This document shows positions 1-38,390 of a stretch of DNA of 64,000 nucleotides, in pieces. Below the pieces are notes generated by a model. The model had not been told where the DNA came from, ran no database searches, and worked only from the letters and a program-made list of their open reading frames with translations. Position 1 is the stretch's first letter; every line of letters starts with the position of its first letter. Source of the stretch: Convolutriloba macropyga (Eukaryota); the NCBI RefSeq assembly GCF_964194025.1, contig NW_027451353.1:62001-126000 (forward strand), given 5' to 3'. The position numbers and the translations under genes are program-made.

Positions 1-1850
1 TAACAATCCCAGATTTAAACAAAACCAGACTAGGTTTTACAAGTATTGCAAACGTTCAGGTCACACAATTTCATATTGCTTTAAATACAAAGACTTTATA
101 AACAAAAACCCGCCTCAAAATCGAGAAAAGTTCACAGATATTTATAAACGTAGTCGGAGCCATTCACCGAGTCAACAAAATTACAGATCAAACAATTATG
201 ACAATCAAAACTGTAGTGACCAACACAAAAATAATTATAACCAAAATCAATCAAATTATCGAAAGAACTCTAGGTCAGAATACCGACACCAATCACCATA
301 CCCATCAGACTCTTCAAACAATTAGCGATCATCATCCAACGATGGCCGGTCACAGGAACGACAAAGTAACTATGTAACAACTTTTATAGTGATAGCAATA
401 GGCAAAATAGTAGGGATAGACAGAGCAACGCTCCCCCAAGATCAGATAATTGGTATCGTGATAGGAGTAGGGACCAGGATCGTGATAGGACACCTACTAG
501 ACAAAGCAATGCTAATCATTCAAGAGATAGCAGTGATGGGCAAAGCCTTCGATTCCACTTTACCAGCGAAACTCCCGGAGGCTATTACAACGAGGACAAC
601 TACAACAAAGAGTATTTAAACTAGATCGGTCTCCGTTCATAAACACTACTAATAGCAAAGCAAGTTATTCACATATTTATTTTAATTTATATCAAACCAT
701 CCCAGACAAAAATAAAAATAACGGCTTAGAAACACAGTTTTTATTAGACACAGGAGCATCAAGCTCTATAATTAATTACTACAGTTACATTGAATTGTTG
801 AAAACACAATACTTTGAGTTGAAAGCTTCAAAAAATCATACTTTAATGGTTAATGATGAGAAACTAAAACTGCTAGGTCGAATAACTTTTATAACTTCTT
901 TCGACATTGAAGGAAAGTTACCAAGTGGAAGTTACCGCATGGCTTTCAGCCAAAGATGATTGCAAGCCAAACTTGTTGAGAATGGATTTCCACTGTAAAA
1001 ACCATGACACACCAAACAATTATGACAATCAAAACTGTAGTGACCAACACAGAAATAATTATAACCAAAATCAATCAAATTATCAAAAGAACTCTAGGTC
1101 AGAATACCGACACCAATCACCATACCCATCAGACTCTTCAAACAATTAGCGATCATCATCCAACGATGGCCGGTCACAGGAACGACAAAGTAACTATGTA
1201 ACAACTTTAATAGAGATAGCAATAGGCAAAATAGTAGGGATAGACAGAGCAACGCTCCACCAAGATCAGATAATCGGTATCGTGATAGGAGTAGAGACCA
1301 GGATCGTGATAGGACACCTACTAGACAAAGCAATGCTAATCATTCAGGAGATAGCAGTGATGGGCAAAGCCTTCGATTCCACTTTACCAGCGAAATTCCC
1401 GGAGGCTATTACAACGAGGACAACTACAACAAAGAGTATTTAAACTAGATCGGTCTCCGTTCATAAACACTACTAATAGCAAAGCAAGTTATTCACATAT
1501 TTATTTTAATTTATATCAAACCATCGGAGACAAAAATAAAAATAACGGCTTAGAAACACAGTTTTTATTAGACACAGGAGCATCAAGCTCTATAATTAAT
1601 TACCACAGTTACATTGAATTGTTGAAAACACAATACTTTGAGTTGAAAGCTTCAAAAAATCATACTTTAATGGTTAATGATGAGAAACTAAAACTGTTAG
1701 GTCGAATAACTTTTATAACTTCTTTCGACATTGAAGGAAAGTTACCAAGTGGAAGTTACCGCATGGGTTTCAGCCAAAGATGATTGCAAGCCAAACTTGT
1801 TGAGAATGGATTTCCACTGTAAAAACCATTGACATAAGCACTCCAAAAAT
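1..1850 (+). pseudogene. Gag C-terminal R/S/D/N-rich region plus retropepsin-type aspartic protease (two copies)
   Basis: TTATTAGACACAGGAGCATCAAGC encodes LLDTGASS(SIIN) at 741 and 1565. Upstream is low-complexity RDRSRDQDRDR-type coding sequence. Frameshifted. Confidence 0.8.
189..1834 (+). repeat. Tandem duplication of ~824 bp covering gag C-terminus and protease
   Basis: CAAACAATTATGACAATC occurs at 189 and 1013, and CACTGTAAAAACCAT at 991 and 1815 (offset 824). The copies are near-identical with scattered substitutions. Confidence 0.95.
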
Positions 1851-2651
1851 TGACTTGAAAACTTACCCTGAAGTAACCGTCGAACTATCTAGGTACCAAA
1901 CCAAAAGCTATTCGTTTGTTAGTTCCTTCAAAATTGCAACTCTTGATCAGCAGCTACCCTTAGCACCAAAATCAACTCGCGTAATATCAATTAGACAACC
2001 CAAACGAATTTTTCAGAAATTGAACCTCTTTTATAATCGGAAGTGGACTGCAAGCTCAAGGTATTTATACTCACAACGTTCAGTGTTTTAGAAAAGAAGA
2101 AGATCTACCAATAATGCCAAACAATGCTCAAAACAACAAGTTTGTCATTCATAAGGGTCCTATGGGGCACACTTTGGAAGACATTGAAGTTAAACAAGAC
2201 ATAGAATATTCTGTAGTTGACAACGTTGCATTCATAAACCACCTAATGAACACTGACACTAATTGGGATCAAATATTCCATGTTAACGAAAAGTAAGGTC
2301 CAAAAATTTCGAAAATTCAAAAATTGCTTTCAAACCAACAAAACCCCTGAAAAACAAAAGAAAACAGAAAAGCGCAAAAGACAGCAAGATTTTACCAAGA
2401 ACTACGAATTATAAACAGACTTTAGCGACGACCTTAAGGATCTTAAGCCACAATTAGAAACAACTGATGAGAACATCAGACCCGTTGAGCTTCCCAAAGA
2501 AAAACTTAACAGATTTGACAAAACCGATCAAGCGTTCCTCGAAGAATTTGATTTCAGTCAAGCTGACATCAGTGACGAAAACTTAGACAAATTACTGAGA
2601 ACTGTAATTAAAAATAAGGACGTTTATTCTAAACACAAATACGAGGTTAGC

Positions 2652-3583
2652 ATGATAAAGCAAAAATTTCATGTCAAACTTTTACCAAATACAACTTTAA
2701 CAAAACAGAGACCGTCCAAAGTACCGTTACATTATCAGGAAAAACAAGAAAACTTTTTGGAACAACTGTGTAAAACAGGTATAATCCGGGAAATGGGTAA
2801 TGATAAAGAAATGGGTTCAGAATTTATTAATCCAATCAGAATCCTACTTAAGGGGAACACAATAAAACTGATCGTAGACGCCCGATATTTGAATTCAATA
2901 ACAGATCTTAGCCGATTTTCATGGCCGCTCGAACCAATCGGAAGCCTATTAACTAGACTTAAAGGTAATTTCTTCACAACCAGTGATCTTTGTTCAGCTT
3001 ATATCCAAGTGCCTATAAATGAGGAAACCAAACAGCTCGTAAGTTTTGTAATTGGTCCAAAGCAATACACATTTGAACGCGGATTTAATGGACTATGCGG
3101 TCTACCTAATTTCTTCAGCCGTATAATGACTATTCATTTTGCACTATTAACCAAAAAAAAGCTATGACATACATTGATGACACCATCAAGCAAGAGCAAT
3201 ATGAAACCCAACTGTTTGAAATAATTGACAAGTACCATGAACTCTTAAGGAAATCAAGGTTAAAAGCTCAATCTGAAAAGACTAAATTTTTCCTTAGGAA
3301 AGTACAGTTCTTAGGACACGTAGAAGGTAAAGATGGAATGCAGCCAGTCAAGAGGCGAGTAGCAGATTTAAAAGCACTCAAGTCGCTTGAAAACAAACGT
3401 GATGTCATGAGAGTTATAGGTTACTTAGGATTCTACAGCATGTACATCAACAATTTGATCGTTGACTGCCAACCATTTTTTGAACTAACCCGCACAGAAA
3501 CTAAACTAGGTTTGTCTGGACAACGGAACACGAAAAACTGTTTAATGACATTCAAGACAGGATTAGCGAAGATAATATCTTAG
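2652..3583 (+). pseudogene. Reverse transcriptase (frameshifted)
   Basis: Motifs LIVDARYLN, FTTSDLCSAYIQVP, GLCGLPNFF, TYIDD, VQFLGH and GFYSMYI span ORFs 2652..3167 and 3164..3583. Confidence 0.93.
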
Positions 3584-4220
3584 CAATACCTGATACTAAA
3601 CACCCTTTCTACGTGCATGTAGACGCTCCTTCTAAAGGAGTAGGCTCATTTCTCGTCCAGAAATTTCCAGAAGGGAAACGAATAGTGTCTTTTAACTCTA
3701 GAATTTACACTAAAGAGGAACAAAAAATGAGCACACAGCACGCGAACTTTGCGGTGTAATATCTGCATTACAAACGTATGAGCCTTACTTAATTGGTTCT
3801 CCTCATCCCGTATACGTGTACATAGACGATAAGCCTTTAAGGTACCTATGGGGTAGACGAGGAAAATTCTCTCACAGGTTTTTCAGATACCAGTTAGTAA
3901 TTTCTCAATTTCAGAACTTGAAAATTATCTGGACCGAAGGAAAAAATTTAGCTTTTCTCGGCATTCTATTTCGTAATGTAAAAATTAAAGACCTTGACAA
4001 GTATCAACTTAAACACAAAAAGATACCAAAAGACATTAGTTTTTACGACGAGCATGGTAACAAGGAAAAATATTTCATTTTGCGTTATTATGAAAAGGGA
4101 CCAGCAGATGATTTTTTTCCAATCTTAAAACAAAGCTTAACAAGAATCGACAAATTTATTTTCAAAAACGACAAAATGGTGAAGCAAAAGTACGACAACC
4201 TTCAAAACCACCATAAATAA
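3584..4220 (+). pseudogene. RNase H (Ty3/Gypsy type), frameshifted
   Basis: Manual translation gives PDTKHPFYVHVDAPSKGVGSFLVQ...IVSFNSRIYTKEEQKMS, then YEPYLIGS..VYIDDKPL and EGKNLAF. Confidence 0.85.
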
Positions 4221-4770
4221 TATTTCCGAAGATTTCTCGCATGGTTCATCAATTAACCATTACAGACGTCACCGCGAACATGAAGTATCCCCTGTATCAG
4301 AACAGGAGGAGGACGAAATGTCTGACCACTATACAGAAATCCCTTCCTACCAGGAAGAGGAGACATCCAAACGATATTTTGATCCAATTTCGGAGTTTGA
4401 GCTGTTCAATGAGAACCAGCCGCCGAAATTAAATTTTGATGAACTCTACATTGATCAAAATAATACAACTGACTCGAGGTATAGGTTGCCATTCGAACAC
4501 GATAAAGTTTTTCTCGTGAAAAATAGTACATGTATAGATAAAACCGAATTAGCTAAAAAATTTCCCGAAAACCCAAAGTTAAAGATGCAAGAGAACTCAT
4601 CGATAAACTTACAACCTTCTCAAAGGAAATTGATCTAAATACTTCAGTATTTGTCAGGAACAATTAAAAGACCCTGTGATACGACAAATTTGCCAATTCA
4701 GGACGAACAATAACAAAGATGAGGAGAAAATTGAATTCCGACAATCCAGATGTTAAATATTTGAAAATTT

Positions 4771-6401
4771 GTGTACCACTGTCATTGTTCTTTAAAGTTT
4801 CACTTAGCTCATTGTGAACTGTCAGGTCATGGTGGATTAGATAAAACACTTGCTATAGTAAAAAAAAAATTTATTGGCCCGGAATGTATAAATGGATTGA
4901 AAACTTCAATCCAAAAACGGAGAGACATCCACAAAGCACCTCTTGAAAAATGGACTGATACAGTCCCATTCCCTTTTAATACAGTCTACATTAATCACAA
5001 GCGACCTTTAAATCCTCCATCGAACGGTAAACATGATTGCCTAGTTTTTGTCGACTCATTTTCACGTTTCATTCAGGTATACACTGTACGATCCACAGTT
5101 GCTGTAGATACCATAAAAGCTTTAGAAACATTTATTAAGTCTTTTGGAATACCACAAAAACTTGTTTAAGATAAGGGTTCCGCGTTCATGAACCAAGATT
5201 TTACGAGTTATATTCATGAATTAGGCATAACACCTGCACCTTGGACAGCTTATTCACCTTGGACTAATGGTAAAGTCGAGATCCAAAACAAACATCTAGG
5301 AGCACATTTCCCAATTTTTCTAGAACAAGCTCGAGGTCAATGGAATTATTTGGCACCAAAATTTGCTTTTTCTCATAACACGGTTCCAAACGGTAGTGCT
5401 GGAATCTCACCTTATGAAATTGTGTTCGGACAAAAACCACAGATACCTCTGTCACTTAAGTTATGGCTCCTACGAAATTCAGAACTCACATGCTCCTCCG
5501 AGTTTTGTAAAGACCTGCCCCTTCACAGGCAAACTTTGCAAACTTCGAAAAACACAAAAATTGACAAGCTCCTAAAACCTACCATAAACAATTCAAAGGT
5601 CATGCGTGAAAACCAATTTAAACAAATATACAATAACACCTATAAAAATAGCTTAGAAAACAATAACCGCGCACATAAAAACAGAAATAAACACAAGTTA
5701 GGTAAGCCACTGGATATTGGACAAAAAGTTTTAATTGAAAATCATCAAATTGAATTGGGAACGTCAAAAAAACTACATGAGCTAAGATCAGACCCTTATA
5801 CGGTAGATAAAAAATAACCAATGTGAACTACGAAATAAATTTAGATAACAACCCGGTTACCAGAAAAGTTGCTCATGTAAATCACGTAGTCGAGTACTAC
5901 CCAGCTACTGAAACTATACCAGAGTTAACCCTAGAATATGGTAGAGATAAAAATAATTGTTACACATTTTATAATAACTTGATAACAAGTCAAATGAATA
6001 AACTCAACAGTCCTTTGACTAAATTTTCGCTCCAAAGCCCAACTAACACCGAATTTTTCCCCGTGGAGATTTTCACAAGAGGAGATCCACCTGTGCAGAG
6101 CCTAGACCTTGATCGAACTCCCACCATTTTTGACTCTGGATTTAAAAAAGAAAGTTCAGGTAGCCGTGACAACTACCCTCTAGTTCCAATAAATCTGCCC
6201 AGTGACAGTCGAACAAGGAGCTCAACTCCTTGCAAGCTGAAAAATTCTAGAATACTTATAGACCCAAATTTAAGTCCTTTCCGCCCTATTAGATCGGAAC
6301 AAGGACCTTCTAATTTTCAAACTTTAGAAAATAATAATAATAGGCGAACTTCTAGTCACTTGACTAAGCCGCCATCAGGTTATCAAGCCGGATTTACTTA
6401 A
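4771..6401 (+). pseudogene. Integrase with GPY/F-like C-terminus and low-complexity tail
   Basis: HCELSGHGG (HHCC half), VFVDSFSRF, DKGSAF, SPWTNGKVE, SPYEIVFG, SDPYTV; interrupted by stops. Confidence 0.9.
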
Positions 6402-6506
6402 TTTTGATTTGAGATACTAGAAACCCAGTCAACATTTACTGGACGTGCCTATTACTACAATTCGTAGCCTTAACCCCTCGCTTGAAACGCTAAAAAAAAG
6501 AACAGA

Positions 6507-8760
6507 ATGAAAAGATATCCTTGTTTTGAAAAACTCTATTTTTCTTATTTAGTTATAAGTCTTTCCTACTTTTGTACTCCTTTTATAGTTATTAACTCTA
6601 CTGAACCTATCCTTGACGATATAAATGATGTATCTAGCAAACTTAGGGTCATTCGTTATGACTGTTCTAAAATGAAAGAAAACAAAATGTATGCTCTAAC
6701 ACAAGTTTCTCCTTGCAAAATCACACCCGAAAACATTCAGATGGTTGATACACATGTAACACTTTGTCAGCGGTCTTATCGGACTTTTGTCAAAGCTCTT
6801 ATGTGCAAGGTCACTGCGATGCTCATTCGTTATAATTGCGGAATGTTTTCCTATTCATCAATTCTACACAACGCTCCAATAATAACATACAAAATTACAG
6901 CTTCGCCTGAACAACGTTTAAATGCTAAAAAAACTGAAAAAATTATTGTTACAGAAATTGATGATGATGACATGGAAATTGACATAAAACATGGAATAAG
7001 AACTGTCTCTTATAAAAACCAGGGATTTGATCTTGAAGGTGAATCATCAACATCTTGTGATAAATTGTGGTCAAATTAAACATTTTTCTTTTGGAACCTT
7101 GTTGCAAGAAACCGTACTCTATATTGATCTTAATGACAGAACTGTCTATAACAGTCAAGGACTAAAATTTCCTTGTGCCCTCTCAGAAGGAGGTTGTCAT
7201 TCGACATCACTCGACTACTTTCCTTACAATTGGGAGGCACCGGAAAATTGTATAGTTACTAAAAGTTTTTCACAAAAAGCTAAAAAGCATAAACATGAAT
7301 ACGAACTTGGTAACGTACAGTATTTCATAGTGAGTGATGAAAAACCGGAGACGCCCTATGAAGGACCAGGAACGTTTTCTCCTGCTGAAATGGATATAAA
7401 AGTTAGAGTAGTCTATGAAAAAGAAATTGTGTGTGGAAAACCTGAGTTTATTTACAGAACAAATTTAGATTCTATATATGTACAGGCGGATTTAATATGA
7501 AGTCTGGCAAACCTTATAAGTCAAAAACTCAACAATTTTTTTCATAAACTTCGTATTGATCCTGACAACAGCCGAAGTGTAAATGGGTTTAATAGGAAGC
7601 CTTCAGATGAACAGATTCGAACATTCGAAAATGGTTTTGTTGCATGGGAACACTTAGACAAAGACAAGTTAGACTATGATCTTAACCTTGCGGTAAAAAT
7701 GCAATTTGTCATATGTCATAATTACATGCAAATGAAACAAGCATGGTTCGGTCATAGAGGAATGCAAACTTGATCGAACTCAAAAACAAATGATAGACAA
7801 AGATAAAAGAAAACAAATGATAACAAATGCAGACTGTCCAAAATAATCGTTTAGCTGGATACATATTAACTGGCAACTGCTCGATCTTCTTAGACACAGA
7901 TGGTAGCATAGGTTGGCTGTACCACTGTCCAAAACGAAACTCACCAATTAAGGTTCATGATCAGTGTTCTGATAGGATTCCTATTCACTATGATGATGAG
8001 ACAATGTTCGTCGACCCAATTACTCGACAAACATATCCATTTGCTAACGAAGTTAATTGTATTGGAGGCTACAAAACGCCTACCAATTAGGTATTGATAA
8101 TGATAATTCATGGTACCATTTGATACCAGCACTTGTTCCTTTACAACCGCCAAAATTATTCTCTTCAAGAGTTGTTAGTTCTGTTCCAAAATTTACCGGT
8201 TACGAATAACAACGTGCCGGAATTTACACACCAAATCAATTAAAATCGTTTTGTGACCATATCTTGCATTCGGAAGCATCAAAATCAGTTTTGACAAAAA
8301 ATTCGAGAGAAGTTCTAGAAAGAAGAAGTATAGACTACTCACAAAAAGGCATCTATGCGTCCGCGATGGGCATAAATAGACAAATTTATCTAGACTCTCT
8401 ACTCTCAACTACATTTTTTACGGAGCAGTTCAAAGGCACTTTTGGAATTATCACTTTCTATCTGTAAAAAATTGGAGTTTATTTTGCTTGTTTCTTGTGC
8501 ATAAAATTCCTTACTGATGTAATTGTAACTATCATTAGAGCTTTCGAAATCCACAAAATATCCAAAAAAATGGGTTTTTGGAAAACTGAATTAGGAGCAA
8601 TTTATTATATTTGTATTTTATCGTTCTTTACACCGGTATTTTCTAACAAAACCACACCATCGGATCCAGAAAACACCAATCATTTTTTACCGCTTAGTAG
8701 TTATCAACCTTACATCACAATAGAAAAAATTACAAATGCGTTGAGGATCAACCAAGGGAA
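6507..8760 (+). pseudogene. env: Env-like viral fusion glycoprotein (chuvirus-G / gB-like class III type, inferred), frameshifted
   Basis: N-terminal signal-like segment, then YDCS..MYALTQVSPC, CKV..YNCGMFS, CALSEGGC, YNWEAPENC, VCGK..IYRTN, WLYHCP and CSDRIPI..FVDPITR..C. Hydrophobic segments at ~8440-8640. Located directly after pol. Confidence 0.8.
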
Positions 8761-9017
8761 ACTAAAATTGATGAGCATTATCATACTGAAAATAACAAAC
8801 CAACATACCCAAGTTTTGAGCCATATCAACCACAACCACAAAATGATGCTACCATTTGAAGTGAGATGGCACCGTCTTGGGGCTGTAACCAAGAAGGAAA
8901 AATCATCCTTTTTATATAAAAAAATTACTTTGTCTCAAAACAACATAAAAATTATTTGTATTAGACCCTACCAATTAGTTATTATCTTGTTTAGATACAC
9001 CTCAAGGATGCTATGTT

Positions 9018-11257
9018 ATGCAGCCCAAATTCATTAAACAGACTAACACCTTATTCATTCGATTTGGACAATACATTGGACAAATCTTATCAACAAGTAC
9101 TTCTACTTTAGGAACTACTGTAACTATTAGAGTTTCATCTTTCTATTTCAGTGACCTTATTGATCTGGACGTACCGCACTCAAATTTTCAATATTTCTTG
9201 TTGTTAAGAGCCCTGGTTGATAACACAACTACATTTGTAAACATTGGAATCGAATACAAAATTGTTTCAAAGCGCCTCAAGTAAAACCTTGCTAGATTTT
9301 GAATTCCCTTGTTAGTTCAACATTGAGAGAAATGTGCAGATTCCTTTCTTTCTTTTTATTTCTTATAATCCAATTATGACTGTTTAATCGCAATTATGTC
9401 TATCTGGCTATTGCCTGAACTCTTCCCCTACTCCGATTGTGCTACAGGGAATCCTATTGAAAGATGATCTATAAATAGTAATCGTTGTCAATAATCCTAC
9501 TTTCAGAAGTAACTGGCACCTTTATATCATCTATCTTTACAAATAAGCATACGTCCATACACAGCTATGAAATGAAAAACAAACAAAATATTAACTAAAA
9601 CGCCTCCATTAACGTACTTTTTATTTCAAGATCGACTTGTTACAATCTATCAAATAAAGAAAACATTTGAAGAAAATCACGGAGCCATTTTCGCTCAAAT
9701 TATTATAAAATTTGAGTTTTGGGACACTTGGGTAACGACAGTGTCATTTTAACCCCTCATTCGTTGTATTAGAACTATTTCGTGTATTTAGCACAGTTTG
9801 ATCCTAATAGTTTGCGTAGTGAACTAGACCAGCAAACATGACTCATCTCACTAATAGAAAACTACAATTCAGAATCGGAAATCAAATTTTTGAGCTTTTA
9901 GCCTTATGCAATGTTTCTGCTATAAGTATAATGACTTTCGTGAAAAAGCCTATGGCAGATATTTACAGATTTTTAACAATATTCATTACCCATACTCAAT
10001 TCGCCGAATTCATCATTTTTCTAGCTTACAAACAGACCCGATATTTTAAAGTTCAACATCCAATCTACATTGCTTATGTACAATTCCAAACTATGATATT
10101 TGCTGTTAACAATAAAATTGTAGGGTTGCACCAAAATCAACGATCTTTCGATGCATACCCAATTCCCGTACCTACCATACAAATAACACTCAAAAAAGAT
10201 CCAAAATGAAAAATTTGGTTTTTTAAGTATTAACCCTCTCTCAGTCCATTGGAAATTCTTCCTCTTTATTCTAGAAAATCCAAACTGTGTACCTCACAAT
10301 ATTTATTTTGATCTGCCAAAAACTGATTCTTCCAAAACGATTCAATCACTAATGAGTTGGAAACAAAAACAATAATAATATTATCATACCAAAATTGCCT
10401 AGTACAAATTCAATTTTTTGAAAAATCATTTGTCACGACAAAATGCCACAGAGTAATCCCACAACTAATACTCCATTTTGAATATTTAAACACTTGGACT
10501 AATGGCAATATTACCTTAACGCCATCTTCCCCCTATTGGACATTTCTTATAAATATATCCCAGGCTTTAAGCGGCTCAAAAATCCCTTTTAATTTAGATC
10601 TTCTGTAATGCTGTTCCATTTTGGTGAGCGCCTAGTCAAAGTAGAGTCCCTCGAGAGATCGTTCACTGAAATTTCCACCGCAGAGATTAAACCCTGTATA
10701 ATAATCAATTATACAGACTACGAACATGGATGCGAGGGTTCTAATCGACTCACCATGTGAATGATGCACTGGTAAATTTTTCTAGCACTCATTGATATCA
10801 AAGAACACTTCCCAGTCAACTTGGGCGCTCTTGAGTAAAATAATTCAGTTTACAGAAAAAACTTTTTTCCCTTTAAACATTTTTTTCGCCAGCTCATTTT
10901 TTTCCCTTTCCATCTCTCTTTCTGTTAATTCATCTCTATTCAAATAAGTTAGTTACTTCCTCGTCGTTTTTTTTTGTGTTGTTAAAAACAATGATTTTAT
11001 TCGTTGGTAAGGAAAAAGTTAAAATTGTTAAAGTAGAAAGATGGTTAACTTTTTGTTACTTACAGTATGAATCCAGCAACAAAATAACTTATATGTTCCT
11101 AAGCACAGGTACCCTTAACCATTATTGCATTTATCCAGACGAGAAACACTGGAATCGCTTTTTTGCTATTGCAGATTTAAATGTAACTATCCCCAATGAA
11201 CTCAAATACCATGGATCAGAAGTCTCATGCCCAAATATCTCTGATTTGTCCATATAA
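9018..11257 (+). CDS. Tandem array of small (~80-95 aa) divergent paralogous accessory ORFs of unknown function; several frameshifted
   Basis: Shared pattern by eye: FLFQDRLVTIYQIKKTF (~9620), MIFAVNNKIVGLHQNQRSF (10093), LSYQNCLVQIQFFEKSF (10357 ORF), MLFHFGERLVKVESLERSF (10608) and MILFVGKEKVKIVKVERW (10991). C-terminal P-x3-[HY]W-x2-hydrophobic motif (NPLSVHWKFF, TPSSPYWTFL, YPDEKHWNRF). Confidence 0.65.
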
Positions 11258-11655
11258 TGGGAAACATTTTGAAAATATACTCTCAGCAACTACAAACTGA
11301 TAAAACCCCAATAATGGAATGCCCTATTTTTTACCTGCCTTGCCGTCAATTCAAAAAATTGCACAAAAACCCAAATGGTCAACCTCCCCATTTTGCTTGC
11401 ATCCCCTGTAGAAATGAGTTATTTAAATATTGGAATCAAGATAATTGCCCCATTTGCGTACCTCCCATTTATACAGTCACTAATTGCCATTATTTCCAGT
11501 GTAATACTTGTCAAGAAATCAAAAAGTTGTCCACTTGCCACAGTCATTTCAAAGACTTACACCCAAAAAAAACCTTTTGTTTGCAGTGTATGACCTTCAC
11601 AACTACAAAATGCCCTTTATGTAAACAAACAATTGACCCAAACAATCCGTGGTAA
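11257..11655 (+). CDS. Double RING-like zinc-finger accessory protein (copy 1), 132 aa
   Basis: HFACIPC..CPIC..YFQCNTC..H..FCLQC..KCPLCKQTI; open frame; starts MG; its ATG overlaps the previous stop (TAATG). Confidence 0.75.
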   Translation: MGNILKIYSQQLQTDKTPIMECPIFYLPCRQFKKLHKNPNGQPPHFACIPCRNELFKYWNQDNCPICVPPIYTVTNCHYFQCNTCQEIKKLSTCHSHFKDLHPKKTFCLQCMTFTTTKCPLCKQTIDPNNPW

Positions 11656-11693
11656 AATCTTCGATTCAAAATTTTGTTTGCAAACTATTCAAA

Positions 11694-11893
11694 ATGTTTA
11701 CACCTACATTACTTGATTTTTTATTAATGGCCCTCATGATCATGCAGCAGCCTTTTCTTTCGTTTTAACCATTTTCCTTGTAGCTGTAAGTATTCCTTTC
11801 AATTTTTTGATGTTAATAGTTATATTAGTAAAAAACCGAACAATAAAATCCCAAGGTAATCAACAACCAAATCCTCCAACCGTATCAGCTTAA
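11694..11893 (+). pseudogene. Small single-pass membrane protein ORF (frameshifted)
   Basis: Manual translation AAAFSFVLTIFLVAVSIPFNFLMLIVILVKNR...; frameshift in the T-run near 11720. Confidence 0.45.
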
Positions 11894-11925
11894 ACACAAT
11901 CGCCTCCAATGACATTCTTTCAAAA

Positions 11926-12306
11926 ATGAATACTATTGACAAAGAAACCAATACTGAAGAATCCAAACCGGTCACATTCATTTGCCTGTGCTGCAAACGC
12001 GCGAAACGATAGTTTTCAACAAAATAATATGAAAACTTCCCAAACGAATTACACCACGTGATGTGTCTGCTTTGTTATCAATATGTTATAAAAGATATGG
12101 GTTATGATTTTTGTACCAAATGCTCTAAATTTAATGTTATCTTTTCAATCCTTAACTGGTTTCAATGTGATATTTGCAGACAAACAAGATTTCAATACTC
12201 TGTTGCAAAAACATTTCATCACAGTGATCATAAGCCCATCAACTTTTGTAAATTTTGCGTAAAAGGTTACAACTTATGCCCTCTTTGCAAAAAAACAATC
12301 ACCTAA
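11926..12306 (+). pseudogene. Double RING-like zinc-finger accessory protein (copy 2), two in-frame stops
   Basis: ATG 11926 is in frame with ORF 12058: FICLCCK..HVMCLLC..FCTKC..WFQCDIC..FCKFC..LCPLCKKTI, which aligns with copy 1. Confidence 0.75.
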
Positions 12307-12312
12307 TCTAAA

Positions 12313-12450
12313 ATGCGTCCAAAAACTTCCAAAATTTTAATTCCTTTCCTGGTTTTACTTTTAGTCCACTTGATATCCCTAATCCAATTCAGTTTTTACC
12401 AGGAACAAGTCACCTTTTTCACCCTATTTCTTCACTACTCAGTGATATGA
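12313..12450 (+). CDS. Small hydrophobic ORF (45 aa)
   Basis: MRPKTSKILIPFLVLLLVHLISLIQFSF...; starts 6 nt after the previous stop and ends 4 nt before the next ATG. Confidence 0.4.
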   Translation: MRPKTSKILIPFLVLLLVHLISLIQFSFYQEQVTFFTLFLHYSVI

Positions 12451-12454
12451 CAAA

Positions 12455-12649
12455 ATGCACCCCATAATATTGTTTATTCTTTTATTTGCTCTGCTGAGCG
12501 TATTGGCAATATCATTTTTATCAACTATTATCTCCTTTATGCAATCGGCCAAATTTTTTCCAGATACGGAAGATGACCGATCTAGATCTCACAACAAAAA
12601 TATTTATCCTAATCTTAATTACCTTACTTGCCATATCGTTCCTCATTAA
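12455..12649 (+). CDS. Small single-pass membrane protein ORF (64 aa)
   Basis: MHPIILFILLFALLSVLAISFLSTIISFM hydrophobic stretch followed by a polar tail with IYPNL. Confidence 0.5.
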   Translation: MHPIILFILLFALLSVLAISFLSTIISFMQSAKFFPDTEDDRSRSHNKNIYPNLNYLTCHIVPH

Positions 12650-12718
12650 TCTCATCCTACTTCAATTTCTCGAAGGTTTTCCTGTTTTTGTCTAAGAAAA
12701 ATAAAAAACAGTCACTCA

Positions 12719-13090
12719 ATGGGTCTCTCACAATCCCTACTTGACAGTTTTCGTTGGCTCTATCCCAATAAGGACATTATTTGCACAATATGTTCGCTCA
12801 AAACCGTTATTGTAGAAAAACTAAACAAATGATTCCCCAAAGAAAATCCACACTATGTATGTATTCCTTGCAGAAAGGCCCTTTTTAAAAGATACTCAAA
12901 CCCTAAATATCCCATCTGTCTTCGACCCTGTCTTCCCGTCCCGATTCTACTTCCGATGCAATTTATGCAAAAAAAAGAAAACAGAATTAAGAGTAACAAA
13001 ACACCCACATTTTTCCCAACATGAGGATCGTCGATTCTGTCCAGTATGGATAAAAAAGCAGACAAAATGTCCCATTTGAAAAAATTTTTT
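12719..13090 (+). pseudogene. Double RING-like zinc-finger accessory protein (copy 3), N-myristoylation-type start
   Basis: MGLSQS..ICTIC..HYVCIPCRKALFK (cf. HFACIPCRNELFK), then a frameshift to YFRCNLC..RFCPV..KCPI*. Confidence 0.7.
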
Positions 13091-13422
13091 AGTCGACGTT
13101 GTTTAATAAACCAAAAACAACTCGAGTCAAAACGACCTTTTTTCACATTTTTCACCTTTTCCTCGGGAAGGGGTCACCTCAGCTTTCTCCAGCTTGCCCT
13201 CCCGGGCTTTAGAACCTACATAAGTTGGAATATCTAGCCAAAATTTCATCCATTTAATAATCTCCTTCATGGCCATTTACATAACAATCTTAATCTTATG
13301 CAACATATTTCAAATTCTTCTTTCCTTCCTTGAAGAGGGAATAAAGTTTATCTTATGGGCTTAAATCTACGGTGGAACACTAGCAGGATAATTGAAAAAT
13401 GATAAAAATAATCTCTTTCTTT

Positions 13423-13556
13423 CAGCTCAGCAAGTTTGTCTCCCCAGCTGCACGGGTCGTTCCAACCGTGTTAGTGTGACACACGCCCCAAGACTCACAC
13501 CTCCGGGCAGCGGAGAAAAACGTACTTGTGCCAGGGCTGCCCGCCTGGCATAAGTA
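13423..13556 (+). promoter_or_regulatory. Structured cis-RNA element: consecutive hairpins with complementary (kissing) loops
   Basis: 13-bp stem TACTTGTGCCAGG/CCTGGCATAAGTA (one G-U) with loop GCTGCCCG, complementary to CGGGCAGC (13504-13511) in hairpin CTCC..GGAG. Upstream stems CAGCT/AGCTG, CACGG/CCGTG and GTGTGA/TCACAC. Confidence 0.55.
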
Positions 13557-13773
13557 TAAAATTTTTTATTATTCCACCCTCTTTCATTAAATAAACTTTG
13601 CAGGTAGCAAAAAAACTTTTCTACCAAACTTTGATAAAAAATGCATTTAGCATTATAATTTGTAAAGAAAGCAGTTAGCAATAAAACCTTACAAGAACAT
13701 TTTTAGAATTGAATTCTTTTTTATATTAGCAATACATTTGCAAACATGAAATAGAAGCCATAATGTGTGATAA

Positions 13774-14996
13774 TTGAGGACACAGGCTAACCAAAAGAAA
13801 AAATTTTACATTATCAACAAGAAGCGGAAAGAACTAGAAATGGCAGCCAAGAAGATCCCAAGCTTCATTATTCCCGTTCAAAGTCAAACGCCGCACCATC
13901 TAACAATCAACAACAAGCACAGATCCATCAAACACCAATTCCCGCTTTCTCAAGCCCACCATTCAAACCTCGAATCACAGTAACCCAAACGGCCAAAAAC
14001 AGCTCAGAATTTTACCCACAATACAACTGACAAGTTAGCAGAAAGGGACCAATCACAACCCAACAAATTAGTAGTCACAAAAACAAAATTATTAAGCTTA
14101 TCAACATTGAAGATCTCGTTCCCGACGCTATCAGAAAAATACCTTCAGAAGGCTTGGAATTGCAGAAACCACGAGAGGAGAACATGGGCAAAGAGAACCC
14201 GAGGTACGTTAACACCCTTCTCTATTTCTTCAAACCAAAGTGAAACAAATTCGAGGTTGCTGATAAAATAAACATCATCCAGTTAAATGGACATCAATAA
14301 CTATTAGCCAACAGCGAAAAACTTCCAGTTCTAAAAACTTTCTCGCTTCCCACAGATAACAGCAAATAGAGAATTAAAAATCTTGACCCTAAGAAGGGCA
14401 CCTATATCCTTAGAAATAACTTGGTCGACGTATACATTGAAATCCCCTATGATGCAATTTCTGCTTTTCCTGTCGAGATGCCAGAACTGACGAATATCAA
14501 TACCAGTAAGCTAATAGAAGAAAACACCAAATTTAGTCAGGAACTATTTCAAAAGGAAACAGAGTTGCAAGAACTGCAACTGAAATTCGAACAACTAAAA
14601 ATGGAGTCGCAGAAACTACCAGAGGAGAAACAACAACCTAACGACTATTGGCAGCGCCAATGTGTCGTTGCCCATCAACTTCAAAAAACCAGCGAATCGA
14701 ACGCAAAAACAATGTTAAAAACGTTTTCTTTGAAACATTTAGAAATAACAAATGCCAACAAAAACCGGAGAAAAGAATCTGGAGCTAGGAAAGAAAATAA
14801 CTCAATTAATGAAGGAAAACGTAGAACAAAAAGCCAAAATTTCCGAACTCAAAAGAAAGGTAAAAATTACAAAAAACGACAGTCGATGGATAAAAACGAA
14901 CCTATTGAAGACGATATACAGAAAGTTCTTTTAATCGAAGACGATGACAGTCCAGTAACAAGCCCGGTCATCTTACCACCAGAATTCTTTAACTAA
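13774..14996 (+). pseudogene. Terminal accessory ORF with coiled-coil region, frameshifted
   Basis: Overlapping ORFs 13774, 14421 and 14752 with heptad-like E/K/Q/L-rich sequence (ELFQKETELQELQLKFEQLK; LGKKITQLMKENVEQKAKISEL). Confidence 0.5.
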
Positions 14997-15055
14997 CATG
15001 GTCACCACCCTTTGCGGTTTATTTTGCATCTCACCACTCCAGTTCTTTTACAGCT

Positions 15056-15190
15056 TTTTGCGATCTTTTTATAGCACAAATGTATCGCCTTTTGCGGTCT
15101 TTTTTATAGCACAACTTTATCGCCATTTGCGATCGTTTTTATAGCACAACATTATCGCCCTTTGCGATTGATTTTGTATTACGACGCCAT
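15056..15190 (+). repeat. ~35-bp tandem repeat in the 3' UTR of the retroelement
   Basis: About 4 copies of TTTGCG(A/G)TC..TTTTATAGCACAA...TATCGCC. Confidence 0.8.
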
Positions 15191-15367
15191 CAAGCCTCGT
15201 ATTTAACCAACTCCTGCAAACTTCGCAACCAACCTACATTGGCAACCTCCAACTCAATTGATTACAACCCCAATCAATGGAAGCTTGAACAAAACTCAGA
15301 ACTTACCTGACCTTCATTTAAAAGTTTTATATGATGTAGAATAATTTATTAAATCTGTTTCTCACTG

Positions 15368-15382
15368 AAAATTGGGGTGAGC
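15368..15382 (+). other. Polypurine tract (candidate)
   Basis: AAAATTGGGGTGAGC immediately followed by TGTA. Confidence 0.6.
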
Positions 15383-16704
15383 TGTAGTATTACGAGAGCC
15401 AATACAAATGAAAGAATAAATAATTTTGCATTACAACGAACGCTTTTAGGCGTTAATTAACCATTATATCGCTGCGCGCTGAACAAATTAACGCTTGTTA
15501 AGACTACCAGTACACAAGTATTTAAACTACTTAGATCGACTTATTTAAATTAACACAACTTTAGGCCTGGATCTCCTCGCTTATATCCAGGATAGAAAAT
15601 GTACGTTGTTGAGCGTAGGCGGTCTGTATAACCACACTTTCTTTTGATTTATATCACTTCAGCTTTTGACAGTTGCATTGCAGATCTCTTCCCCCAAGTT
15701 CAATAAGATGAAGCAGATTACTTCAGGGGAAAAGACAATAGAGTCTCATAAAAAGCCCCCAGGAAAACCATAATTGTTGCGGTTTTAGAAGAGGGGAAAA
15801 GCAGAAAACAGGCGCCTACGTGATCAATAATTGATGCTCTCAGCTTTTTAGATTTTTATTAATTTTTGGATTTTCAATCATTTTTCCTTGAGATAAAAAA
15901 GAGTTAATTCTCTTGCCTTCTCGGCCCATAGGAAAATGAAGAAGCACCTCACTATGAATGTGAGTTTGTGATTTGCTCCCCATTGGCCCAAATTGAGCTG
16001 AGATGAATTTGTAAATTCTCTCAGCGAAGTGGGACGGAATAAAGGTAGAGAGACAGAAACAAGAACCAGAAATCAGCTGCAGACAACTGCTTTCCTATTT
16101 TTTGATAAATAGCTCTAAATTCAGAACAGAGATTGCTTATAACTTTCAAACAGAAAATACTCAAAATACACAGTTTAAACAACTTAACTTACAATTTCTT
16201 CATTAAATCTTATAAGTTTTTTTCCCGTCTAAACTGAAAATCTAACCGACTAACAAGAAGAACTGAACGATCGCTACTCAGCTCATCTCGATATCACAAC
16301 AATGCAACTGGTAATTAGTAAGCTGTAACTTTATATTTATTTTTTATAAATTAAACACTTTCTGCCCCCCCCCCCCCAACAATTTTAAATTGAGACTTAT
16401 AGCACAGACTGGTCTTGGGCATATATCTTTGCCTTCGATTTGTTATATCTTTTGTGTCAAGTAAGACTGACATACATAAAAAGATCCCTTATCGTGTGAT
16501 CTGTAGCAGCCCAGCCTAATTTGATACATCAACTTAAGTTCTCTCCTGATCATCAGGCAAAACATCAATCATGAGCAAAATTTTAATTTGGTTTTAGCCA
16601 AAATTATCTATAATAGCTTGGTGACCACTACCAGTTGTCATAAACCGAAGTACTCCTTTTTAACGTCGCCAGTAAGTGTACAACAAAACAACAAACCACT
16701 TACA
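15383..16704 (+). repeat. Probable 3' LTR (right end tentative)
   Basis: Begins TGTAG after the PPT; candidate end ..CTTACA at 16704 (TGTA/TACA). The 5' LTR is outside the window, so this is unconfirmed. Confidence 0.45.
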
Positions 16705-28849: not shown

Positions 28850-31800
28850 ACTGAAGGAATTTTTTGCTTGAAGCAAAATTGTCCGAAACAACAAAGAAGG
28901 TAGGTTATCAAAAAAATACTTAGAGGGCACTATCATCGTAGAAGTTAAAATTTCGTTTTTTTTCTGTTAGATTTTTTTGATAGCAAATATCATCCAACCA
29001 GGCTTCAAAAAAATCCGGCGGTGATTTTTGTATTTATTGTGTATAATTAAGCGTGATAACTTGAGATTTGTCAGAAAAAAATGGTTTTTGAAAAATTTCA
29101 TTAAAAGTTTCAGTCTTTTCTTTAAATGACAAGGAATCCTGTCTTTCCTCAGCTTTCTTTTCACGGTTGTTGCATTCAAACAGAACATGCAATGGAGGGC
29201 AAGATGTAGCTAAAAGAACGTTTTCCTTGAAAACAATACTGTTCGAAACAACAAAGAAGGCAGATTATCTGAAAAAAAACACTTATTGGCCCGATGGGCG
29301 TATAAGCGTAGAAGTTGTTATTTTTTGTTATAGTTTGTTTAAGATAACAAATATCATCTGACCATGCTTCGAAAAATCTGGCGTCGATAGTTTTTTTTAT
29401 AAGTCAGTGTGTACATTTTTGCGAGATGACTCGCAATTTGTCAGAAAAAATTAGTTTTTGAAAAGTTTGAGTGAAACTTTTTATTTTCTTTAAATGAAAA
29501 CGAACCTTCTCTTTTCTCAGCTTTCTTTTCACAGTTGTTGCAGTCAAACAGAACATGCAATAGAGGTCAAGATGTAGCTAAAAGAACGTTTTGCTTGAAA
29601 ACAATACTGTTCGAAACAACAAAGAAGGCAGATTATCTGAAAAAAAAACACTTATTGGCCCGATGGGCGTATAAGCGTAGAAGTTGTTATTTTTTGTTAT
29701 ACTTTGTTTAAGATAACAAATATCATCTGACCATGCTTCAAAAAATCTGGCGTCGATAGTTTTTTTATAAGTCAGTGTGTACAATTTTGCGAGATAACTC
29801 GCAATTTGTCAGAAAAAATTAGTTTTTGAAAAGTTTTAGTGAAACTTTTTATTTTCTTTAAATGAAAACGAACCTTCTCTTTTCTCAGCTTTTTTTTTCA
29901 CAGTTGTTGCAGTCAAACAGAACATGCAATAGAGGGCCAGATGAAGCCAAAGGAAAGCTTTGCTTGAAAATGAAACTGTTCGAAACAACAATGAAGACAG
30001 ATTATCAGAAAAAACACTTATTGACCCGATGGGCGTAGAAGCGTAAAAGTTGTTATTTTTTTGGGTTAGTTTGTTTAAGATAACAAATATCATCCGGCCA
30101 TGCTTCAAAAAATTTGGCGTTGATAGTTTTTATAAGTCAGTGAGTATAATTTTAAGAGATAACTCGCAATTTGTCAGAAAAAAATTAATTTTTGAAAAGT
30201 TTGAGTGAAATTTTTTGTTTTTTTAAATGACAACGAACCTTGTCTTTTCACAGTTTTCTTTTCACAATTGTTGCAGTCAAACAAAACATGCAATAGAGGT
30301 CAAGATGTAGCCAAAGGAAGGCTTTGCTTGAAAATAAAACTGTTCGAAAGAACAATCAAGGCAGATTATCAGGAAAAACACTTATTGGACCGATGGGCGT
30401 AGAAGCGCAGAAGTTGTTTTTTTTGTGTTAGTTTGTATGAGATAACAAATATTTCAGCATAGTTACTTCAATCAACTCATTTCATAATTACGAGAGTTAC
30501 AAATATGTATTACATTTTAGTACAAGAGGAAAAGAATTTCGTTTTTTGCTGTCAATCTTTAATTTTGTCCATTTTGATAAAAAATAGTTTTCTTAAATTC
30601 CATTAAACTTCGACGTGTACTTGCTCTAATGATCCGTGTTTATTCCTTTTTTTCAATCAAAGTGTACCCAAAACTGCTTACTGTGTCACAAGAAGATAAT
30701 TTACTGTTGTGTTCGTTCAGTTGAACCTGTGGTTTTTCAGGAAATTTTTAAAGTGTTTTATAGAAACACTGAATATCTTTAAAGACTGTCTGTTTTTGAG
30801 GATATAGAAGTAATAATAGGCACCAAAATAATTTCCAACCTTGAATTTATTACTGGTAGTGCAGTTTGATTTCAATATTATCAATGTAAGGGCTTAATAA
30901 TTATCATATTGTAAGAAATCTGGAAACTTTTTACAAAATTTTATCCTACATTTTTTTTGTTCTTTTATCTAGTTCTGCATTATTGGTCATTTGATGTTTT
31001 AAAGTTATTTTGTTTCAGCACGAAATTGGTTTCAGCACTACTGCTGTGATCAATTTTTATGGAAACCGTTATAAAAGGAAAGAAAATCGTTCGGAACTTT
31101 GGGAGCAAAAAATTAGACATGAAGAGAAACTCCTTACCTTATAACTTTTTATTTAAGGAATCAAAACTTACTTTCAATAGCGCAATATAACGCTCAAAAT
31201 ATGACCTTGGAAACATTATCAAGAAAAGGTAGTTTAGAGGGAGATAAAAGCTCTTTTTTGCCAATTTTTTCCTAAAATATCATTAAATTGACCTCAATTT
31301 GCAAATCATTGCTGAATATGTTTTACAGACAGCAAATACCCTATATTTCTACAGCCAAAGGAAGGCTTTGCTTGAAAAAAACTGTTTGAAACAAAAAAGA
31401 GGGCAGATTATCAGAAAAAAAACTTATTGGCCCGATGGGCGTAGAAGCGTAGAAGTTGTTAGTTTTTTGTGTTAGTTTGTTCAAGATAAGAAATATCATC
31501 CCACAATGCTTCAAAAAATTTGGCAATGGTAGTTTTTATAAATCAGTGAGGATAATTTTGCGAGATAACTTGCAAATTGTCAGAAAAAAATTTGTTTTTG
31601 AAAAGATTGATTGAAATTTTTTGTTTTTTTTAAATGACAACGAACCTTGATTTTTCTCAGCTTTTTTTCACAGTTGTTGCAGTCAAACAGCACATGCAAT
31701 AGAGGGCAAGATGTAGACGAAAGAAGGCTTTGCTAGAAAAAAAACTGTTCGAAACAACAATCAAGGCAGATTATCAGAAAAAACACTTATTGGACCGATG

Positions 31801-34800
31801 GGCGTAGAAGCGTAGAAGTTGTTTTTTTTGTGTTAGTTTGTATAAGATAACAAATATTTCAGCATAGTTACTTCAATCAACTCATTTCATAATTACGAGA
31901 GTTACAAATATGTATTACATTTTAGTACAAGAGGAAAAGAATTTCGTTTTTTGCTGTCAATCTTTAATTTTGTCCATTTTGATAAAAAATAGTTTTATTA
32001 AATTCCATTAAACTTCGACGTGTACTTGCTCTAATGATCCGTGTTTATTCCTTTTTTTCAATCAAAGTGTACCCAAAACTGCTTACTGTGTCACAAGAAG
32101 ATAATTTACTGTTGTGTTCGTTCAGTTGAACCTGTGGTTTTTCAGGAAATTTTTAAAGTGTTTTATAGAAACACTGAATATCTTTAAAGACTGTCTGTTT
32201 TTGAGGATATAGAAGTAATATTAGGCACCAAAATAATTTTCAACCTTTGAATTTTTTACTGGTAGTGCAAGTTGGTTTCAATATTATCAATGTAAGGGCT
32301 TAATAATTATCATATTGTAAGAAATCTGGAAATTTTTACAAAATTTTATCCTACATTTTTTTTGTTCTTTTATCTAGTTCTGCATTATTGGTCATTTGAT
32401 GTTTTAAAGTTATTTTGTTTCAGCACGAATTTAGTTTCAGCACTATTGCTGTGATCAATTTTTATGGAAACCGTTATAAAAGGAAAGAAAATCGTTCGGA
32501 ACTTTGGGAGCAGAAAATTAGACATGAAGAGAAACTCCTTACCTTATAACTTTTTATTTAAGGAATCAAAACTTACTTTCAATAGCGCAATATAACGCTC
32601 AAATTATGACCTTGGAAACATTATCAAGAAAAAGTAGTTTAGAGGGAGATAAAAGCTCTTTTTTGCCAATTTTTTCCTAAAATATCATTAAATTGACCCC
32701 AATTTGCGAATCATTGCTTAATATTTTTCACAGACAACAAATACCCTATATTTCTACAGCCAAAGGAAGGCTTTGCTTGAAAAAAAATGTTTGAAACAAA
32801 AAAGAAGGCACATTATCGGAAAAAAAACTTATTGGCCCGATGGGCGTAGAAGCGTAGAAGTTGTTAGTTTTTTGTGTTAGTTTGTTCAAGATAAGAAATA
32901 TCATCCCACTATGCTTCAAAAAATCTGACAATGGTAGTTTTTATAAATCAGTGAGGATAATTTTGCTAGATAACTTGCAAATTGTCAGAAAAAAATTTGT
33001 TTTTGAAAAGATTGATTGAAATTTTTTGTTTTTTTTTTAAATGACAACGAACCTTGTCTTTTCTCAGATTTCTTTTCACAGTTGTTGCAGTCAAACAGAA
33101 CATGCAATAGAGGTCAAGATGTAGCCAAAGGAAGGCCTCGCTTGAAAATAAAACTGTTCGAAACAACAATCACGGCAGATTATCAGAAAAAACACTTATT
33201 GGACCGATGGGCGTAGAAGCGTAGAAGTTGTTTTTTTTTTGTGTTAGTTTGTTTAAGATAACATATATTTCAGCATAGTTACTTCAATCAACTCATTTCA
33301 TAATTACGAGAGTTACAAATTTGTATTACTTTTTTGTACAAGAGGAAATGAATTTCGTTTTTTGCTGTCAATCTTTAATTTTGTCCATTTTGATAAAAAA
33401 TAGTTTTCTAAAATTCTATTAAACTTCGACGTGTACTTGCTCTAATGATCCCTGTTTATTCCTTTTTTTCAATCAAAGTGTACCTAAAACTGCTTACTGT
33501 GTCACAAGAAGATAATTTACTGTTGTGTTCGTTCAGTTGAACCTGTGGTTTTTCAGTTAATTTTTAAAGTGTTTTATAGAAACACTGGAAAACTTTAGAA
33601 ACTGTCTGTTTTTGAGGATATAAAAGTAATATTAGGCACCAAATTAATTTCCAATTTTTGAATATTTTACTGGCAGTGCAGTTTTGTATCAATATTATCA
33701 ATATAAAGGCTTAATAATTATTATATTGTAAGAAATCTGGAAACTTTTTACAACAATTTATCCTACATTTTTTTGTTCTTTTATCTAGTTCTGCATTATT
33801 GGTCATTTGATGTTCTAAAGTTATTTTGTTTCAGCACTAACTTAGCTCGAAAATCTGCTGCTGTGATCAATTTTTATGGAAACCATTATAAAAGGAAAGA
33901 AAATCGTTCGGAACTTTGGGAGCAAAAATTTAGACATGAAGAGAAACTCCTTACCTTATAACTTTTTATTGAAGGAATCAAAACTTATTTTCAATAGCGC
34001 AATATAACGCTCAAAATATGAGCTTGAAAACATTATCAAGAGAAGGTAGTTTAGAGGGAGATAAAAGCTCTTCTTTTGCCAATTTTTTCCTAAAATATCT
34101 TAAAATTGACCTCAATTTGCGAATCATTGCTTATTTTTTTTACAGACAGCAAATACCCCATATCTCTACAGACAAAAGAAGGCTTTGCTTAAAAAAACTG
34201 TTTGAAACAAAAAAGAAGGCAGATTATCAGAAAAAACTCTTATTGGCCCGATGGGCGTAGAAGCGTAGAAGTTGTTATTTTATTTGTGTTAGTTTCTTCA
34301 AGATAAGAAGTATCATCCTACTATGCTTCAAAAAATCTGGCAATGGTAGTTTTTATAAGTCAGTGAGGATAACTTTGCGAGATAACTTGCAAATTGTCAG
34401 AAAAAAATTTGTTTTTGAAAAGTTTGATTGAAATTTTTTGTTTTTTTTAAATGAAAACGAACCTTCTCATTTCTCAGCTTTCTTTTCACAGTTGTTGCAG
34501 TCAAACAAAACATGCAATAGAGGTCAAGATGTAGCCAAAGGAAGGCTTTGCTTGAAAATAAAACTGTTCGAAACAACAATCACGGCAGATTATCAGAAAA
34601 AACACTTATTGGACCGATGGGCGTAGAAGCGTAGAAGTTGTTTTTTTTTGTGTTAGTTTGTTTAAGATAACATATATTTCAGCATAGTTACTTCAATCAA
34701 CTCATTTCATAATTACGAGAGTTACAAATTTGTATTACTTTTTTGTACAAGAGGAAATGAATTTCGTTTTTTGCTGTCAATCTTTAATTTTGTCCATTTT

Positions 34801-37800: not shown

Positions 37801-38390
37801 TTTATAGAAACACTGAAAATCTTTAAAGACTGTCTGTTTTTGAGGATATAGAATTAATATTAGGCACCAAAATAATTTCCAACCTTTGAATTTTTTACTG
37901 GTAGTGCAGTTTGGTTTCAATATTATCAATGTAAGGGCTTAATAATTATCATATTGTAAGAAATCTTGGAACTCTTTACAAAATTTTATCCTACATTTGT
38001 TTTGTTCTTTTATCTAGTTCTGCATTATTGCTCATTTGATGTTTTAAAGATATATTGCTTCAGCTTTAATTTAGCACAAAAATCTACTGCTGTGATCAAT
38101 TTTTATGGAAATCGTTATAAAAAGAAAGAAAATCGTTCGAAACTTAAAAATTGTGAGCAAAAAATTATACATGCAGAGAAACTCCTTAACTTATAACTTT
38201 TTATTTAATGAGTCAAAACTTATTTTCAATAGCGCAAAATAACGCTCAAAATATGAGCTTGCAAACATTATTAAGAGAGGGTAGTTTAGAGGGAGATAAA
38301 AGCTCTTCTTTTGCCACTTTTTTCCTAAAATATCTTAAAATTGACCTCAATTTGCGAATCATTGCTTAATAATTTCTTACAGACAGCGAA
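28850..38390. repeat. Satellite: ~365-bp monomers changing into ~1.41-kb higher-order units (~6 copies)
   Basis: Marker GATGGGCGTA at ~29293, 29662, 30028, 30392, then in pairs at 31434/31797, 32839/33206, 34250/34616, 35660/36027 and 37073/37435. Confidence 0.95.

Follow-up and report, generated by a model that had tools for sequence, protein, structure and literature searches.

The host element and its GC-rich island

Positions 1-16528 (+) of the window, by which we mean the whole 64,000-nt stretch of DNA analysed, are the 3' part of a Ty3/gypsy LTR element that totals ~20.8 kb, in a host genome of 1.18 Gb. Its place among the env-bearing Ty3/gypsy elements is given by its LTRs, the protease-RT-RNase H-integrase order and a fusion glycoprotein. 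Pfam identifies the RT, RNase H, integrase and Monjiviricetes-type fusion glycoprotein, every one of which is interrupted in the window copy, and the 5' LTR, in the stretch upstream of the window, is 92% identical to the 3' LTR. Short accessory ORFs form an array between env and the 3' LTR. The island that is our subject lies 3' of three zinc-finger-like ORFs, 5' of the last ORF and ~1.9 kb inside the 3' LTR; no Pfam family matched that last ORF above cut-off. The features of this region are as follows.

13411..13425, + strand: polypyrimidine-TTTCAG acceptor-like site, with a second CAG at 13428-30
13435..13521, + strand: family-specific long-range helix (13435-13443/13512-13521) closing a multiloop in the MFE fold
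13443..13466, + strand: shared core, predicted H-type pseudoknot, CCC-A-GCNNC-RC-GGG-UCG-NN-GNNGC, made up of CCC (13443-45), A, GCNNC (13447-51), RC, GGG (13454-56), UCG, NN and GNNGC (13462-66)
13474..13500, + strand: GTGTGA/TCACAC hairpin, the form that the variable hairpin 3' of the core takes in the window's family
13504..13511, + strand: CGGGCAGC, 5' partner of a proposed loop interaction, invariant between subfamilies
13523..13556, + strand: family-specific 13-bp hairpin with loop GCTGCCCG (351 genome matches, 0 in the control)
13554..13603, + strand: candidate short intron (GTATAA ... TTTGCAG), paralleled by GTAGG..AG in CACTA-type families
13747..14996, + strand: last accessory ORF region, interrupted in the window copy and open for 371 aa in copy L124
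15382..16528, + strand: 3' LTR (TG...CA), preceded by a purine-rich tract

Between env and the 3' LTR, env-gypsy families (window 9000-13100; L075, L082, L067) carry ~8-12 short ORFs, many of them joined stop-to-start (TAATG/ATGA), which fall into two paralogue groups, proteins of 75-105 aa and CxxC zinc fingers. By analogy, these arrays would be an accessory cassette like that of complex retroviruses. Just 5' of the purine tract of the 3' LTR stand three 35-nt repeats (15056-15168), each able to form a short GCGAT/ATCGC hairpin and differing in number among copies, and a direct duplication of ~830 bp occupies the gag-protease boundary of the element (window 1-1840). Elsewhere in the window are a 1410-bp tandem repeat made of ~365-bp units (28860-38400) and a strand-asymmetric, G/T-rich satellite with 21-22-nt subunits (48900-52450 and 59700-64000).

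The first-pass annotation had read 13423-13556 as a GC island of five abutting stems, forming an RNA element upstream of the last ORF. The island is there, in surrounding DNA of ~35% GC, and a conserved, structured element on the + strand can be upheld, though the stems and pairings as described partly fail. Folding the 134-mer gives z = -2.35, only modestly above shuffles, 7/200 of which are equally stable. The island is real and under selection: its identity between two subfamilies is 87% compared with 56%, 76% and 57% in the flanks (36 pairs). Diverged DNA contigs align to 13418-13567 only, and their flanks are unrelated.

Aligned copies were compared for compensatory versus disruptive changes, and two of the claimed stems went opposite ways. 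The 13-bp stem (13523-13535/13544-13556, loop at 13536-13543) is present, has one G.U pair that favours the + strand and shows a compensatory C-G to U-A change in 8/21 aligned copies, which amounts to one subfamily event. In contrast, the CACGG/CCGTG stem is disrupted, with one pair broken in 10/21 aligned copies, the second subfamily among them. The GTGTGA/TCACAC hairpin is paired in 98.4% of cells and has one-sided changes in 4/6 pairs (21 aligned copies), and within the long-range helix five of nine pairs are invariant, two vary on one side and two are mostly mismatched.

A kissing loop had also been proposed, in which the loop of the 13-bp stem pairs with the preceding hairpin. Its exact complement does exist at 13504-13511 and is unusual by shuffle test, arising in 41/20,000 dinucleotide shuffles of the 5' 100 nt. 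However, the 8-bp kiss and the full 5-bp CTCCG/CGGAG stem are mutually exclusive, because the complement includes the closing C-G of that stem, and GGAGA can instead pair over a greater length with 13435-13443. Across the 21 aligned copies the loop pairs are 95% paired, and both 7-mers are intact in 62/81 distinct copies; no common variant of the complement was found in the DNA contigs of two runs. Family-level covariation was not seen, the one double change being in one heavily decayed copy of the 21. The region of the complement is better read as a 7-nt linker or loop, and a 7-bp loop interaction is possible as a putative feature of the window's family alone, which covariation neither supports nor refutes. 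A retroviral dimer initiation signal has a self-complementary loop in the 5' leader; here each loop is complementary only to the other, and both are close to the 3' LTR.

A small core shared among transposon families

The earlier annotation picked the right place and identified one true stem; what is conserved, however, is a smaller unit, a core common to several transposon classes. The window copy departs from other copies at 13462 and 13465, breaking two of the five pairs of the core stem, and this probably hid the core from the earlier reader. When 17 family representatives are aligned, 13/36 columns are invariant and the 5-bp GCNNC/GNNGC stem covaries across families. Two of its pairs show double changes in five rows each (10 double-change cells), one varying three ways (U-A/C-G/A-U) and the other as G-C/A-U. 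No shuffle of 500 reaches this score, a control that ignores relatedness, so that the 17 related rows represent a few events and not ten or 17 independent ones. The stem is paired in 95.6% of cases compared with 29-52% in slid controls.

The second helix of the predicted pseudoknot, CCC:GGG, pairs in 17/17 rows, and the CUC of one subfamily retains pairing through G.U. Such near-invariant pairs are compatible with a pseudoknot, from which we infer one, but they are not covariation, and an inner mini-stem of C-G and G-C within the loop offers an alternative. The variable hairpin 3' of the core covaries as well (GCCC/GGGC and GCUC/GAGC), with loops of 4 to ~25 nt. There are two exceptions to the general layout: the core stem of family 2 has just 3-4 pairs, and family 3c has no hairpin 3' of the core. 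Families 5-7 (L241, L253, L255) have an extra hairpin directly 3' of the core, with a GGC triloop and a stem covarying between AUC/GAU and GUC/GAC; in family 7 it is repeated downstream together with a second GTAGG.

Similarity searches with the env family led to other gypsy families, one of which matched over 22 nt at the corresponding position and carried a compensatory change. The core pattern has 270 genome matches and 3 in the control, and the same pattern without the first two families has 101 and 44, respectively. Thirty loci from this exclusion pattern comprised 11 of one new group, 8 of another, 2 of the window's family and 9 without a complementary stem. Among 40 matches chosen by the core word alone, 38 were from the window's family, one resembled family 2 and one belonged to a new family, which led to two further families.

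Altogether, the core was found in nine repeat families of three kinds within the same animal genome. Two are env-bearing gypsy families (families 1 and 2). In a third gypsy (family 4, L179-L182), two tandem cores 74 nt apart head a unit that runs antisense between pol and an env-like ORF; a guess that the ORF of this unit is a JmjC protein was dropped, as it had no Pfam support or other Pfam match. The remaining six are CACTA-type families, with the core 5' of a GDSL-like ORF. A CACTA-type transposase region was found in 4/6 of them, with Pfam support in two and a flanking HTH_psq in a third; the other two are assigned to this class by their shared GDSL-like ORF. The CACTA-type carriers include Transposase_21/DUF1258 and SET domains, and L184, L190 and L270 are CACTA-type transposons that carry both GDSL-like and SET-domain ORFs. 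Terminal inverted repeats were absent from three CACTA-type flanking pairs. The GDSL-like ORF has few relatives (8 matches) and none in viral contigs, and no Pfam or Atlas identity was found for the last ORF of family 2. Viral contigs gave 8 matches to the core pattern, zero of them with a complementary stem, and six metagenome matches were set aside as chance, being in GC-rich DNA with some pairing partly forced by the pattern (one was inspected for ORFs).

The distribution of the module is patchy, as expected from exchange or loss. When other env-gypsy copies were scanned with a covariance model, 19/20 of their downstream stretches lacked the core and one had it. Neither core nor island is present in the closest sister gypsy family, which has an env segment 79% identical compared with 69% for family 2. 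We propose that the core moves between unrelated elements as a cassette, to which the window's family adds its own 3' domain, consisting of the long closing helix, the 13-bp hairpin and the possible 7-bp loop interaction.

Transcript context and resemblance to known RNAs

Across families, the core is always sense to the ORF downstream. The first-pass annotation had pointed to the acceptor-like site ending at 13425, which is present and is backed by enrichment: an acceptor-like AG lies 5-26 nt 5' of 8/12 family cores, against a background of 8-19%. A YYCAG word is found upstream of the core in 81/81 distinct family copies. In family 2, the strongest acceptor lies 3' of the core. On the other side of the core, GTAGG follows the hairpin in CACTA-type families, and an acceptor-like AG occurs <=8 nt before the ATG in 7/8 CACTA-type ORFs compared with 42/438 other ATGs. 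Since an acceptor precedes the core, a GT donor follows it and an acceptor-like AG stands near the ATG, the core probably occupies a short 5'-UTR exon without coding sequence; excision of the intron predicted to come next would remove 0-4 upstream ATGs.

Downstream of the core in L088 and L122, candidate GT..AG introns of only 29-30 nt precede the ORFs, which suggests that the host may have very small introns. A CGGTGG(G)A word 5' of the last ORF is kept in three families (window 13370-13379; L075:2419; L082:2851). We take it to resemble motif 1 of the calicivirus TURBS; helix 26 of the host 18S has no loop matching it.

The Rfam search suggested by the earlier annotation brought no match to any Rfam 15 family. 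At E<=10, scans gave three chance matches on 2001 nt of the window and three on eight family loci, none near a gathering score. Other candidates were considered and rejected. TURBS/HCV-type elements act by Watson-Crick pairing with 18S helix 26, and the invariant loop of the core meets host helix 26 only through several G.U pairs; its best Watson-Crick match to the host 18S is 6-7 nt, elsewhere than helix 26 and at chance level. A 5S-derived element of the SINE3/Cassandra type was dismissed on host 5S alignments with p 0.09-0.88 in 8/8 cases, and no tRNA or tmRNA was found in the eight family loci. Pol III promoters have an A-box/B-box consensus; A-box-like and B-box-like words are only 12-18 nt apart here, a spacing that by eye is too short. 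A Helitron 3' end was also dismissed: some families have CTRR words 3' of GTAGG, but the upstream bodies are not shared.

Possible functions of the core

We tentatively prefer, at a little short of an even chance, the reading that the core is a 5'-UTR-exon pseudoknot bound by a host factor, which raises or regulates how efficiently the mRNA for the next ORF is translated or how stable it is. On this reading the 24-nt core, which recurs as a conserved RNA module in the nine transposon families of this genome, would fold as a small pseudoknot within the short non-coding exon, and a host factor would bind it and act on the accessory-gene mRNA. The partner would be a host factor or ligand, and not an element protein, because gypsy and CACTA elements share no proteins. 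Counting against this reading, the distance from core to ATG ranges over 83-826 nt on the DNA of eight copies measured, in contrast to IRESs with fixed spacing. A stable pseudoknot in the 5' UTR could equally repress scanning.

Several other functions are suggested by parts of the same evidence. Eukaryotic TPP riboswitches set a precedent for splice control, and the core could likewise bind a protein or small ligand and shift use between an upstream GT donor and the downstream GTAGG donor. In families read by eye, a GT donor-like word (GTAAGT, GTAGGT, AG|GT) lies 0-25 nt before the core and a second one after it; the unpaired bases that never vary could make up a pocket, and the tandem cores of family 4 would sharpen a response. 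However, GT words are common and the donor-like count was by eye with no computed background, no Rfam riboswitch matches, and no spliced (GT..AG) copies were among the joints listed in the DNA contigs of four runs. Metabolite riboswitches are not known from animals, which counts further against a splice switch, and we consider it improbable. It seems less probable again that the core is a small self-cleaving ribozyme of a new class, which would process the transcripts of the elements. The core is small and pseudoknotted, has invariant unpaired bases, is common to unrelated mobile elements and is sometimes tandem, traits reminiscent of retroelement ribozymes, both HDV-like (R2/L1Tc/RTE) and hammerhead (Penelope/retrozymes) (PMC6765202). 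Those ribozymes are described at element ends or in terminal repeats (PMC6765202), whereas the core is internal. In families 1 and 2, it lies on the genomic-RNA strand ~1.9 kb inside the 3' LTR, and constitutive cleavage is disfavoured because at this mid-genome position it would cut the reverse-transcription template. No known ribozyme class matches either. A hammerhead core combines CUGANGA with GAAA and a UH site; the CTGANGA word is absent from the sense strand in 12/12 elements, with one antisense word in family 5. An HDV-like ribozyme is a nested double pseudoknot with P3/L3, P1.1, P4 and a catalytic C in J4/2; there was no such Rfam match, and inspection by hand found a 7-bp loop helix without P3, P4 and J4/2 in that order.

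An exonuclease-blocking role, also raised by the first-pass annotation, would make the core an exoribonuclease-resistant RNA, protecting the ORF 3' of it against 5'-3' decay. Classes 1 and 2 of these xrRNAs need a three-way junction, which the shared core does not have. Its position as a compact pseudoknot 5' of an ORF is that of the class 3 xrRNAs of plant viruses (PMC12397905). As that source describes them, class 3 xrRNAs have a coaxial P1-P2 stack, a J1/2 bulge docking a T-loop, an AGY linker and a pseudoknot of greater length, 9 bp in the structure that was solved (PMC12397905). By eye the core has none of these, which leaves resistance very unlikely. The core could also mimic the SRP Alu domain and recruit SRP9/14, affecting exon inclusion or ribosome binding; Alu folds are known to link SRP9/14 to exon inclusion (PMC10450188). 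Its 3-bp stem, 8-nt loop (A, GCNNC, 2 nt) and 5-bp GCNNC pairing reproduce the geometry of Alu helix 4 in the Rfam consensus for the SRP RNA Alu 5' domain (RF00017), and families 3a and 3b align to nt 3-36 of host 7SL (p 0.011 and 0.015). But the order of partners is reversed, with the covarying one downstream and not in an upstream helix-3 loop, the three-way junction with a U-turn that SRP9/14 contacts (PMC4238359) is missing, and families 2, 3 and 4 lack the UGU that precedes the stem. Only 3/12 sense alignments to host 7SL have p<0.03 (0.011-0.029, at two different places) compared with 1/12 antisense alignments (p 0.029); looser gap costs gave two stronger scores, and covariance model R1 finds nothing in host 7SL. 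Homology to host 7SL is marginal, and derivation from it does not reach useful significance. We consider mimicry of the Alu domain very unlikely. The kissing loop had originally suggested a signal for the export, packaging or dimerisation of genomic RNA, as in the MusD transport element (MTE), a structured non-coding RNA close to the 3' LTR that combines a pseudoknot with a kissing interaction and presumably binds a host protein (PMC4588558). The MTE rescues the export of unspliced RNA and needs its kissing pair to do so (PMC4588558). The island resembles it in its position near the 3' LTR and its possible loop interaction, and the family-specific 3' domain is conserved. The MTE is ~400 nt and retroelement-specific (PMC4588558), whereas the core has 24 nt, is predicted to lie in a 5'-UTR exon and is also found in DNA transposons. 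Packaging or dimerisation is unlikely for the shared core because DNA transposons need no such signal, and the core is found in CACTA elements and antisense to gag-pol. With the island missing from the closest sister gypsy family, loops that are not self-complementary and loop pairs that do not covary, this reading too is very unlikely, though it could still apply to the family-specific 3' domain alone.

As a rule, a structured RNA element of transposons belongs to a single family. One small, covarying fold common to env-gypsy elements, an antisense gypsy unit and CACTA transposons points to a common host target, and its spread points to the exchange of regulatory RNA modules between transposon classes. 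In bdelloid rotifers, accessory ORFs, including GDSL esterase ORFs, are common to diverse retroelements (PMC5408684). The parallel lies in modules shared between unrelated elements, here with the core 5' of a GDSL-like ORF in CACTA-type families; the bdelloid module is a coding ORF (PMC5408684), whereas here a non-coding RNA fold crosses from retroelements to DNA transposons. In the literature searched, mostly open-access texts (PMC5408684 and PMC13524379 among them), there was no description of such a motif or element type. The module is real, under selection and apparently undescribed, a structured cis-acting RNA of transposons. The preferred reading, of a core bound by a host factor, leaves some room for a bolder one, which we consider unlikely: that the core represents a class of small functional RNA new to science and found here in an animal, either a ligand-sensing splice switch or a regulated ribozyme, which unrelated retroelements and DNA transposons exchange as a plug-in 5'-UTR exon that controls their captured accessory genes. 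If the core is a ribozyme or riboswitch, it would be a new class in animals. Its size of ~25-70 nt, its tandem form and the compensatory variants that exist in nature make it directly testable.

When the base after CCCA was varied in the search pattern, it yielded no new family with the stem, just the end of an old repeat. This AT-rich, MITE/Helentron-like repeat (L119, L126, L155-L159) ends in CCCC-N8-GGGTCGG without a covarying stem. It also has ~10 more bases in common with the stretch ahead of the core in family 4 and is a possible candidate for the source of the core.
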